DNA of 64,000 nucleotides from Acidobacteriota bacterium (GTDB taxonomy: Bacteria; Acidobacteriota; Thermoanaerobaculia; UBA5066; Gp7-AA6): positions 18,736 to 82,735 of the forward strand of contig JBKOZO010000014.1 in assembly GCA_046725935.1 (NCBI GenBank). Direction: 5' to 3'. Below, piece after piece: positions 44,101-47,100 of this stretch (its first letter is position 1; each line of letters begins with the position of its first letter). Made by a program: the position numbers.

Positions 44101-47100
44101 ATTTAGGAGACCGCTACCTTGCGCGTTCTTCTGACCGGCAGCCGCGGCTACATCGGGACCGTCATGTCTCCGTTTCTCGCTGCCGCGGGCCACGAGGTGA
44201 CCGGCCTGGACACCGACTTCTACGAAGGCAGCACGTTTCTCGGGCCTCTGCCGGAAATCCCGTCGATCGAAAAAGACGTCCGCGACGTGACGCCGCCCGA
44301 CCTCGAGGGGTTCGACGCGGTCATTCACCTCGCCGCCCTCTCGAACGATCCGCTCGGCGACCTCAATCCCGACACCACCTACTCGATCAACCACCTCGGG
44401 GCGGTCCACCTCGCCCGCGCGGCGCGCGAGGCCGGCGTCTCGCGCTTCCTCTTCTCTTCCTCCTGCAGCAACTACGGCGCAGCGGGAGACTCGATGGTGG
44501 ACGAGCGCTCGCCGTTGAACCCCGTGACTCCCTACGGGGTCTCGAAGGTCCGCGCCGAGCAGGACATTGGCGCGCTCGCGGACCACCGGTTCAGTCCCAC
44601 GTTCCTCCGCCCCACGACGGCGTACGGCGTCTCGCCGCGGCATCGATTCGACATCGTGCTCAACAACCTGACCGCCTGGGCCGTGACCACGGGACGCATC
44701 CACTTGAAGTCCGACGGGACTCCGTGGCGCCCCCTCGTCCACATCGAAGACATCTCGAGGGCTTTTCTCGCGGTGCTCGAAGCGCCGCGCGAGGCGATCC
44801 ACAACGAGGTCTTCAACGTCGGCCGCACCGAAGAGAACTACCAGATCCGGCAGATCGCCGAGATCGTGGGCCAGACCGTGCCCGGCTGCACGATCGAGTT
44901 CGCAGCCGGCGCCGGCCCCGACACCCGGTCCTACCGCGTGGACTTCGGCAAGATCGCCCGTCAGGTGCCGGCGTTTCGCCCCCGCTGGACCGTGCGCGAG
45001 GGCGCGCGGGAGCTCTACGAGGCCTACCGAAAGACCGACCTGAAGCTCGAAGAGTTCGAAGGCCCCCGCTACCGTCGGATCGACTGTCTTCGCCAGTTGC
45101 TGACGTCGGGGCGTCTCGACCCGAGCCTTCACTGGACCTCCTGACCCGACCCCGGCACCAGAACCTACCGCATCCTCCGGCGTATCCCGAACCGGGAGGG
45201 GAAGACATGATCCGCGTATCCCATCGCATTGCGCCGCGCCTCGCGCGAGCCGCGGCCGCGCTCGCCATCGCCCTGCTGCCCGCCGGCATCGCGTCCGCCC
45301 AGACGGTCACGGGGCGATGGCTCCTCGACTTCGAGTCCGACGGCTCTGTCCAGCTGACGCTGAAGCAGAGGGAGTTCGGCCACGGCAACCTGTGGCAGAG
45401 CTCGGACGAGTACCGGCTCGAGGATTTTCAGGGCCTCGCGAGGCCTCAGGGCTCGGCCGAGGTCCCGGTCACGTTCGACATGGTGCGGGACGCGGGAACG
45501 ATCCACTTCGAAGGCCAGCTGAACTCCTCCGGCGGCGCGGGCCGCTTCACGTTCACGGGCAATCCCGCGTTCGCCGACGAGCTCCAGAAGCGCGGCAACG
45601 GGAAGCCTCACCGCGACGAGCTCTTCTCGCTGGCCGTGCACGACGTGTCGCTCAAGTTCATCGCGGAGCTGGACAGTCTCGGATACCACCGCGTGCCCTA
45701 CGAGGACCTGCTTTCGATGCGGATCCACGGAGCGGGGCCCAACTTCATCCGCGCCCTGAAGGACCTGGGCTACACCGGTCTCTCGACGGACGATCTGGTC
45801 TCCATGCGGATCCACGGTGCGGACCCGGAGTTCATCGAGGAGCTCAAGAAGCTGGGCTACGCCGACCTCTCCGCCGACGACCTGGTCTCCATGCGCATCC
45901 ACGGAGCCACGCCCGAGTTCGCGTCCGCGATGAAGGCGCTCGGGTACGGGCGCCTCGATCCCGACGAGCTCGTCTCGATGCGGATCCACGGCGTCACGCC
46001 CGAGTTCGCCCGCGACGTGAAAGCGCTGGGCTTCCGGGACGTCTCCCCCGACGACCTCGTCTCGATGCGAATCCACGGCGTCTCGGTCGAGTTCGCGAAG
46101 AAGATGAAGGCGCGCGATCCGCAGGCCACCGTGGACGATCTGGTGAGCATGCGGATCCACGGACACAGCTGATCGGGAGCGCGCCCTGTCCGGTTCCGAA
46201 CACCTGCGTCCCGAGACCAGCCAGAGCGCGGTCGCGGGCCCGAGCGCGGGGCTGTGTTTTCAAGGAGTTAGGAAGCCCGGCGGCTGGCACGCTTCTCGCC
46301 CTTCCATCCACACCGTGGACATCGTTCGCGAGGACCTCTCGCAGAAACGCCGCAAGAAGCGGATCATGCTCGCCGCCGCGGGAGCGGGCGCGATCCTGCT
46401 CATCACTCTGGGCCTTTCGCGCCTGAAACCGGCGGCCCCGACCGTCGAAAAAAGCACCGTCTGGATGGACACCGTCAAGCGCGGGCCGATGGTCCGCCAG
46501 GTGCGCGGTCCCGGAACGCTCGTGCCGGTGGAGATCCGGTGGATCTCGTCGGACACGGACGGGCGCGTCGAGCGGCAGGTGATCCTGCCGGGCACTCCCG
46601 TCACGCCCGACTCGATTCTCCTCGAGATGTCGAATCCGTCTCTCGACCGCGAGGCGCTCGACGCCGACTCGCAGCTGCGGGCGGCTGAGGCGGAGCTGGC
46701 GAACGTCAAGGCCAAGGCCGACCGCGACGTCATGGACCAGGAGGCCACCGCCGCCTCGGTCCGCTCCGACTATCACCAGGCGGAGCTCCAGGCCGAGACG
46801 AACGAGGGCCTCTACAAGGAAGGCCTCGTGGCCGGGTTGACGCTGAAGCTCTCCAAGGTCCGCGCCGAGGAGATGGCGACGCGCAACGAGATCGAAGAGA
46901 GAAGGCTCTCCGTCGTCGCCGACTCCGCCAAGGCCATGGTCCGGGTGCAGGAGGCGCACGTCGACCAGCTCAAGGCCCTGGCCGCTCTGAAGCGGTCGCA
47001 GAAGGAGAACCTCAAAGTCCGCGCCGGCATCTCGGGCGTGCTTCAGGAGCTCCCGGTGCAGGTCGGCCAGCTCGTCGCCCCGGGAACCACACTCGCCAAG

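Follow-up and report, generated by a model that had tools for sequence, protein, structure and literature searches.

A secreted repeat protein of an acidobacterium most likely represents, in soluble form, a hitherto undescribed sensor module of BlaR1-family proteases

Introduction

At positions 45207..46172 (+ strand) of a 64,000-nucleotide stretch of an Acidobacteriota genome (Thermoanaerobaculia; contig JBKOZO010000014.1, positions 18,736 to 82,735; the whole stretch is hereafter called the window) lies a gene for a protein of 321 amino acids (aa). Most likely the protein is exported by Sec and represents, in soluble form, a hitherto undescribed extracytoplasmic sensor module of BlaR1-family (M56) proteases. 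Behind its signal peptide the protein consists of a beta-stranded N domain and an R domain of tandem 29-aa repeats, and these two parts together (N+R) constitute the module. For beta-lactam resistance, BlaI/BlaR1 is the textbook case of a switch by regulated proteolysis, and the switch itself is familiar; what is new is a large, undescribed sensor module of the BlaR1 family with an unusual organisation, in which, for the most part, one portion of the sensor belongs to a membrane protease and the other to a secreted protein from the same operon. To our knowledge no such split sensor has been described for BlaR systems, and the literature retrieved reports none. In our view the window protein probably belongs, as a periplasmic co-sensor subunit, to a BlaI/BlaR-type switch and has been retained in this genome as an orphan.

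A widespread module of M56 proteases

Searches for named families returned little. The window protein has no identical entry by exact-sequence look-up; Pfam-A and NCBIfam gave nothing significant, only sub-threshold matches at the level of chance, and no Pfam repeat family (TPR, Sel1, HEAT, HhH, PPR and others) rose above its curated threshold. The best match in a search of PDB sequences was a designed repeat protein (8v2d), with no significant natural match, and a Foldseek comparison of the full structural model with the PDB gave nothing under an E-value of 0.05, the N domain being without a PDB fold match. An earlier, sequence-only reading of this DNA had been unable to place the repeat in any named family, and in these searches it has none. 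The literature retrieved likewise holds no description of the N+R module.

Relatives of the protein are abundant. A word-indexed search yielded more than 2216 homologues. At a clustering level of 50% identity, an exhaustive profile search gave 5338 clusters with E<=1e-3; 4057 remained at E<=1e-10 and 2004 at E<=1e-30. Most of the top representatives are 700-1000 aa long and carry the module at their C-terminus; all nine long homologues tested match Pfam Peptidase_M56 (PF05569), the BlaR1 family, and one family member is annotated as 'M56 family metallopeptidase [Bacteroidota bacterium]'. Architectures were called with home-made N and R profiles and a regular expression for the M56 motif (HExxH...ExxxD), cross-checked with Pfam. 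By these calls the 150 best representatives comprise 81 proteins of M56+N+R, 18 of M56+R, 50 stand-alone N+R proteins (median 371 aa) and one of another kind, so that 99 of the 150 are BlaR1-like M56 proteases with the module as ectodomain. In the M56 proteins of loci L004, L001, L082 and L083, and in the family entries P0121-P0149, N+R or R lies C-terminal to the last transmembrane (TM) helix, the place that the sensor domain occupies in BlaR1 and MecR1. The stand-alone form, with its Sec signal peptide, would therefore reach the same compartment as the BlaR sensor domain. The penicillin-binding (transpeptidase) domain PF00905 is absent from the window protein and from the nine M56 relatives tested.

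Such a sensor fits into a gap that is already apparent. In a study of CenIR covering some 15,000 M56 proteins, the commonest architecture was an M56 domain with a C-terminal region in which no domain could be identified; only about 6% had a penicillin-binding domain, and 96% were encoded near a BlaI gene (doi 10.64898/2026.04.08.717257). The N+R module belongs to this unannotated majority of M56 C-terminal regions. One sensor module is thereby defined among 'BlaR' proteins with domain-less C-termini and unknown signals, providing a testable system for how non-beta-lactam BlaR sensors perceive their signals, and a definition of the N and R domains would annotate thousands of hypothetical proteins. 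The clusters, in their thousands, are spread over Acidobacteriota, Bacteroidota, Gemmatimonadota and Rhodothermales; according to genome records, the stand-alone form occurs in Thermoanaerobaculia, Blastocatellia, Vicinamibacteria, Bryobacteraceae, Holophagales, Acidiferrales, Gemmatimonadaceae and Rhodothermales. A few family entries bear seemingly unrelated labels, namely IspH or 4-hydroxy-3-methylbut-2-enyl diphosphate reductase (P0006), PF02401 (P0116) and DUF433 (P0075).

A sensor divided between two genes

Two samples of loci were compared, the first seeded with the stand-alone protein (L001-L084) and the second, independent of it, with the M56 motif HELAH[VI]xRxD (L085-L164). On the gene-called contigs of L001 and L004, a gene for BlaI (Penicillinase_R) is followed by one for Peptidase_M56 and then by the homologue of the window gene, with a gap of 2 nucleotides (nt) in L001 and an 11-nt overlap in L004; in the latter the M56 ectodomain beyond the last TM helix consists of 29-aa repeats with no beta domain. 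The same succession, a gene for M56+R only and right behind it a single N+R gene or a pair of them, was found in 56 loci of the first sample, and a gene for M56+R only followed by N+R in 79 loci of both samples together. Two further loci of the first sample (L082, L083) encode the fused M56+N+R protein and have no stand-alone N+R gene. In the second sample, where enough downstream sequence was present, N+R followed the M56+R-only gene in 23 of 24 cases; it followed none of the three fused M56+N+R genes with downstream sequence, and none of about 45 genes for M56 proteins with unrelated C-termini. The beta-stranded N domain is thus provided either in cis or in trans, and the trans form is specific to BlaR proteins that bear R repeats. 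It is this complementarity that makes the stand-alone protein most likely a trans-acting co-sensor subunit.

The operons also appear to be under the control of their own repressor. Of 55 loci, 50 have the palindrome TACGAA-N4-TTCGTA ahead of blaI, often as a pair with a TTGACA -35 element in between; in a slightly relaxed form the pattern occurs 79 times in L005-L084, in every case no more than 200 nt before blaI. Known Bla/Mec operators are TACA/TGTA dyads, similar to the outer TAC...GTA of this palindrome. Its position upstream of blaI indicates that the blaI-blaR-NR operon is autoregulated, with N+R as the sole constant extra cistron, and in occupying blaI-blaR operons with palindromic promoter operators the relatives of the window protein resemble BlaI/BlaR1, MecI/MecR1 and CenIR of C. 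difficile. A second palindrome, TGTYCG-N4-CGRACA, was considered as the BlaI operator and rejected: it precedes macA but never blaI, whose upstream regions carry the different palindrome just described.

From this arrangement a mechanism can be proposed. In most genomes N+R is the third cistron of blaI-blaR-NR, which would be repressed through the TACGAA-N4-TTCGTA operators. The BlaR ectodomain contributes R repeats only, and the secreted N+R protein would bring the N domain in trans, joining that ectodomain in the periplasm as a co-sensor or ligand-presenting subunit. Binding of a ligand, or its loss, would then activate the cytoplasmic zinc protease, which would cut BlaI and derepress the operon. 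In the window lineage blaI-blaR would have been lost and the gene kept under purifying selection, apparently behind a promoter of the type used by extracytoplasmic function (ECF) sigma factors; the orphan copy would presumably serve a BlaR-type partner encoded elsewhere or bind the same ligand in the periplasm by itself.

Several points weigh against this mechanism. The physical association of N+R with BlaR is something that we infer, and the data suggest no candidate for the ligand. One locus (L092, 371-2988) breaks the pattern, its M56+R-only gene being followed by one for an unrelated secreted protein instead of N+R. About a quarter of stand-alone genes, that of the window included, have no adjacent M56 gene (the first sample holds an orphan N+R gene in about 17 loci), and with so many lacking an M56 neighbour the protein can evidently be useful alone or at a distance. 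The split form (M56-R plus a signal peptide with N-R, as against M56-N-R) carries repeats on both partners and is thus not the fused form simply cut in two. Nor do the repeat counts of adjacent partners correlate (1-10 in M56-R, mostly 6-7 in N+R; rho 0.04), which leaves a simple zipper of repeat against repeat unsupported.

An inducible effector that sequesters the ligand would, moreover, give the same genomic pattern. By analogy with BlaZ or PBP2a, which have a ligand-binding fold in common with the sensor domains of BlaR1 and MecR1, the stand-alone protein might be a secreted decoy for the ligand of the BlaR ectodomain. That logic is the canonical one of Bla and Mec systems, and it would suit a protein whose gene, the regulators aside, is the one constant member of an autoregulated operon, that has R repeats in common with the BlaR sensor, that is encoded in two tandem copies in some genomes and whose orphan copies are under selection behind stress-type (ECF-like) promoter motifs. 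We nevertheless regard a decoy as unlikely, since BlaR proteins with an N+R of their own (L082, L083, L087, L089, L098) never adjoin a stand-alone copy, though an effector would still be needed there, and since N-domain complementarity is the expected signature of subunits of one complex.

Highly improbable, in our estimate, is that the protein is a structural or adhesive component of the envelope, such as a glycan- or peptidoglycan-binding solenoid whose link with BlaR reflects no more than shared domain ancestry. A solenoid with one conserved aromatic residue (Y/F in 71% of units) and one histidine per repeat would be apt for such a role; orphan copies are common, and the window has polysaccharide-synthesis genes (Wzz/tyrosine kinase, Wzy) upstream. 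Against it stand the tight operon coupling to blaR in the 79 loci, the complementarity of the N domain, and the fact that no known cell-wall or carbohydrate-binding family was matched in Pfam, NCBIfam or PDB fold searches.

In many operons blaR is followed by two tandem N+R paralogues, typically one of 6-7 repeats and one of 3-6. These loci (L030, L033, L037, L039, L041, L046, L048, L051-L054, L058-L060, L062, L070, L074, L077) belong mostly to Blastocatellia or Pyrinomonadaceae, and L033 is labelled Clostridia.

The window protein

That the window gene is real and under purifying selection follows from its base composition and its divergence. The G+C content at third codon positions of the open reading frame (ORF) is 0.91, and comparison with the orthologue in L005, whose protein is 85% identical, gives a ratio of non-synonymous to synonymous substitution (dN/dS) of 0.13 over aa 1-135 and 0.09 over the repeats, each of which retains its own identity between the two proteins. 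The coding sequence runs from an ATG at 45207 to a stop codon at 46170-46172, with a Shine-Dalgarno sequence, GGGAGGGG, read directly at 45194..45201 (+ strand), so that the ORF proposed at 45207-46172 by the sequence-only reading is borne out by its start, its ribosome-binding site, its third-position composition and a dN/dS of about 0.1.

The N-terminus, MIRVSHRIAPRLARAAAALAIALLPAGIASA|Q (…LLPAGIASA|Q), reads as a Sec-type signal peptide of aa 1-31 cleaved at ASA|Q (45207..45299), and the structural model places a helix of low confidence at residues 11-22; export, which had also been proposed earlier, is thus predicted from the N-terminal residues. The protein contains no cysteine and therefore no lipobox, and apart from the signal peptide it has, unlike BlaR1 and MecR1, neither an M56 domain (no HExxH motif) nor a TM segment. 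The mature protein is acidic, with an isoelectric point (pI) of 5.4. Next comes the N domain, aa 32-135 (45300..45611), a six-stranded antiparallel beta domain with a linker helix, recognised from the AlphaFold2 model and from invariant alignment columns. It is the best-conserved part of the protein, with invariant positions W38, F90, A96, G97, G103 and G112, and its 104 residues agree with the non-repetitive region of about 110 aa that had been noticed after the signal peptide.

The R domain, aa 136-321 (45612..46169), was delimited by Tandem Repeats Finder, by reading of the sequence and by AlphaFold2 models as 6.5 repeats of 29 aa, with units starting at 45612, 45699, 45786, 45873, 45960, 46047 and 46131. 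Some 6.5 tandem repeats with an SMRIHG core had been reported, and the count holds as six units plus a terminal half unit; the first of the six (aa 136-164) is degenerate. Six SMRIHG cores lie at aa 170, 199, 228, 257, 286 and 314, at spacings of 29, 29, 29, 29 and 28 aa, and Tandem Repeats Finder gives a period of 87 nt with 4.3 copies and 72% matches. The period is accordingly 29 aa or 87 nt and not the 31 aa and 93 nt given earlier, and the motif string then written down itself sums to 29. Nor are the repeats near-perfect, as had been thought: only a core of 8-10 residues (LVSMRIHG) is invariant, and whole units are 24-66% identical as protein and 49-72% as DNA.

AlphaFold2 modelled the full protein from an alignment of 53 sequences with a predicted local distance difference test (pLDDT) score of 93 and a predicted template modelling (pTM) score of 0.83, placing beta strands within aa 34-118 followed by 15 helices of about nine residues each; the repeat region modelled by itself reached a pLDDT of 96.9 and a pTM of 0.88. 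Each unit is laid out as a helix A (xDDLVSMRI), a tight turn (HGxx), a helix B (PEFxxxxKx) and a loop (LGYxxLS), and the consensus over 1545 units of the family is xDDLVxMRIHGVTPEFIRELxxLGYxxLx. Every repeat has one histidine at its tight turn, as other solenoids do, and the analysis yielded no support for metal binding by His and Asp, which had earlier been put forward for testing. A regular helix-turn-helix solenoid of this kind is found also in other alpha-solenoids (designed helical repeat proteins, TPR, Sel1, HEAT and HhH), and the designed protein 8v2d is the best match overall in PDB sequence and fold; TPR, Sel1 and HEAT units are longer than the 29-aa R unit with its two nine-residue helices. 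Neither the beta domain nor the 29-aa solenoid has a name, in which the module differs from the sensors of BlaR1 and MecR1.

An orphan gene in the window

A further difference from BlaR1 and MecR1 is that the window gene has neither a BlaI nor a BlaR neighbour. By tblastn, the 64-kb window encodes no BlaI (PF03965) and no M56 protein, and the operator TACGAA-N4-TTCGTA does not occur in it, even with two mismatches allowed. Thermoanaerobaculia relatives show what the locus may once have looked like. In L009, L019, L021-23, L025, L027-29, L032 and L035 the order is FolD ... blaI-blaR-NR followed by the sigma54 control region and macA-ABC-ADOPs; in the window, L005 and L007 it is FolD-(epimerase)-NR-macA-ABC-ADOPs; in L006 it is FolD-NR-macA-ABC-ADOPs; and in L008 FolD-NR stands alone, with macA some 5 kb downstream. 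As the same flanks are found with and without blaI-blaR, loss of blaI-blaR in the window lineage is the parsimonious reading.

In place of the operator, the window gene is preceded by GAACC-N15-CGTA at 45161..45184 (+ strand), 46 nt before the ATG, a motif that resembles an ECF-sigma-type promoter. The pattern [GA]AAC[CT]-N14-16-CGT[ACT] lies upstream of 10 of 20 orphan N+R genes, those of the window, L005, L007, L008, L011, L012, L047, L057, L063 and L079, in the form GAACC-N15-CGT(A/C), and in seven of them (the window, L005, L008, L011, L012, L057 and L063) it begins 43-47 nt before the start codon. To judge from its form the motif is probably an ECF-sigma promoter, and its near-constant distance from the start codon suggests that orphan genes have been re-wired from BlaI to ECF control. 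Among the small ORFs of the window that were tested no ECF sigma factor was detected, none of them matching a Pfam family.

The neighbouring macA-ABC-ADOP genes

Immediately downstream, as the sequence-only reading had described, stand genes for a MacA-like periplasmic adaptor (HlyD / RND_mfp; 46315..47568), an ABC ATPase of the MacB/LolD/DarD type (47579..48334) and five tandem ADOP-type duplicated permeases (48345..60903), all on the + strand. The first three permeases pass the cut-off of the ADOP model TIGR03434; the fourth and fifth were compared with Pfam only (MacB_PCD + FtsX). On the upstream side, the stop-to-stop ORFs of the second and fourth permeases extend past the domain match by about 130-230 codons, and their true starts are probably downstream.

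It had been proposed that the repeat gene is the first of the MacA-ATPase-ADOP transcription unit. This is contradicted by the 142-nt spacer between the repeat gene and macA, which holds three conserved elements belonging to the latter: a palindrome, TGTCCGGTTCCGAACA (TGTYCG-N4-CGRACA), at 46187..46202, the putative enhancer-binding-protein site, or upstream activating sequence (UAS), of the macA operon; a site like those of integration host factor (IHF), TTTCAAGGAGTTA (WATCAANNNNTTR, one mismatch), at 46258..46270 (+ strand); and a sigma54-type promoter, TGGCACGCTTCTCGC (-24 GG, -12 GC; TGGCACG-N4-TYGC), at 46285..46299 (+ strand). In 16 loci the UAS precedes the -24 element at a distance of 97-100 nt; the IHF-like site stands 26-28 nt before TGGCAC in 14 of those 16, and the sigma54 -24/-12 promoter is kept in every related locus that bears macA. 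Within the window the palindrome was found once against 0.05 occurrences expected by chance, and the sigma54 promoter once against 0.10. The elements remain with macA even where it lies about 5 kb (L008) or 2 kb (L010) from N+R. Because macA has conserved UAS, IHF-like and sigma54 elements of its own, the macA operon does not start with the repeat gene, and the operon model of the window is corrected to three separate units, under ECF-like, sigma54 and housekeeping control. The sole terminator-like candidate between the two genes is a weak hairpin (46232-46253) that folds no better than shuffled sequences (z 0.67), so that some read-through into macA is possible.

The sigma54 control region was also observed in L005-L010, L018-L035, L069 and L091, and the window encodes no sigma54 activator (GAFTGA). 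The macA start codon, GTG or ATG, has a fixed position in all loci, and the -12 GC lies about 15 nt before the conserved start (G/A)TG GAC ATC (46299-46317), so near that the sigma54 transcript would be leaderless or nearly so.

A different role for the window protein would follow if the neighbourhood were functional: it might be a periplasmic accessory, substrate-binding or scaffold part of the MacA-ABC-ADOP exporter, or the substrate that it exports. In 15-17 loci of a Thermoanaerobaculia clade N+R does precede macA, by 120-235 nt, and the expected co-occurrence with ADOP is conserved there. In a census of 89 loci, in which the downstream neighbour was taken as the longest ORF and MacA counts are underestimates, ADOP (MacB_PCD+FtsX) was the commonest same-strand family downstream; MacA or ADOP occupies that place in about 25% of loci. 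Directly behind N+R, in the same orientation and without macA, stands an ADOP gene in L003 (9 nt), L034 (28 nt), L052 (69 nt) and L066 (200 nt), and directly also in L119, L133 (overlapping) and L155. Against this, the co-occurrence does not extend to the family at large, where about 75% of N+R genes have neither MacA nor ADOP beside them; macA keeps its control elements when it is parted from N+R; and the module is covalently joined to BlaR proteins and never to MacA or ADOP, with which it has no sequence or domain relationship. ADOP genes, moreover, flank M56 genes that have no N+R module (L094, L095, L143, L153, L158), so that the link is one of BlaIR systems with ADOP in Acidobacteriota and not of N+R with ADOP. 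On this evidence we hold a part in the exporter to be distinctly unlikely. The sequence-only reading had itself named a characterised domain family in an unrelated genomic context as something that would refute it, and the dominant context found for the family, BlaI/BlaR1 (M56) and not MacAB, comes close to that.

A looser functional link between N+R and MacA/ADOP is possible. Taking the loci just listed together, ADOPs are frequent immediate neighbours of BlaI/BlaR whatever the sensor domain of the BlaR protein, and ADOPs may be a common output of BlaI/BlaR-type systems; the association of BlaIR with ADOP/MacB-type permeases in Acidobacteriota is at any rate recurrent, if not exclusive.

Resemblance to TALE repeats

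Outside the M56 proteases, the nearest natural likeness is to transcription activator-like effectors (TALEs) and TALE-like proteins (Xanthomonas TALEs, BurrH/Bat, MOrTLs), which are also built of tandem two-helix repeats and have a local motif, H-G-[LV]-T-P-E-x-[VI], in common with the R units. The top PDB match of the family profile is a TALE (9jo8, E 9e-5), driven by the HG[LV]TPE of each repeat. With the repeat-only model, the best natural Foldseek matches were weak (TALE 4osl, probability 0.89, TM-score 0.36; BurrH 4cj9, probability 0.87, TM-score 0.45; E 0.14-0.34), and hhalign aligned the R repeat with the TALE repeat at 72% probability over 19 columns only. The differences are considerable. 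TALE repeats are 33-35 aa long and those of the window protein 29; the repeat-variable loop of TALEs is hypervariable, whereas the equivalent positions of the R repeat are conserved (L in 45%, G in 85% and Y/F in 71% of the 1545 units); and TALEs travel by the type III system to the host nucleus, whereas the window protein is predicted to be exported by Sec to the periplasm. Its acidity and its predicted export argue against DNA binding, the motif in common may be a mere helix N-cap, and we treat the resemblance as a lead only.

Were the lead to be followed to its end, the 29-aa units would be ancient extracytoplasmic relatives of TALE/BurrH repeats that read a linear polymer, one unit to each monomer, and gate a BlaR1-type protease. 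A membrane-tethered array on BlaR and the secreted N+R subunit would together read a polymer that could be a glycan strand, a peptide or extracellular nucleic acid. We think this quite improbable; if true, soil Acidobacteriota and Bacteroidota would harbour a large class of polymer-reading envelope sensors that has gone unrecognised, and the finding would have a bearing on how TALE repeats arose, for which there is no explanation so far.

Other genes of the window

Upstream of the repeat gene, the region 35933-43108 encodes functions in polysaccharide assembly: a Wzz/GNVR co-polymerase of the tyrosine-kinase type (35933-38218, - strand), a Wzy_C O-antigen ligase-like protein (41663-43108) and a TPR protein. 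The FolD and NAD-dependent epimerase genes come after these. At the far end of the window, a second ABC ATPase gene begins at about 63322 (63322-63999).

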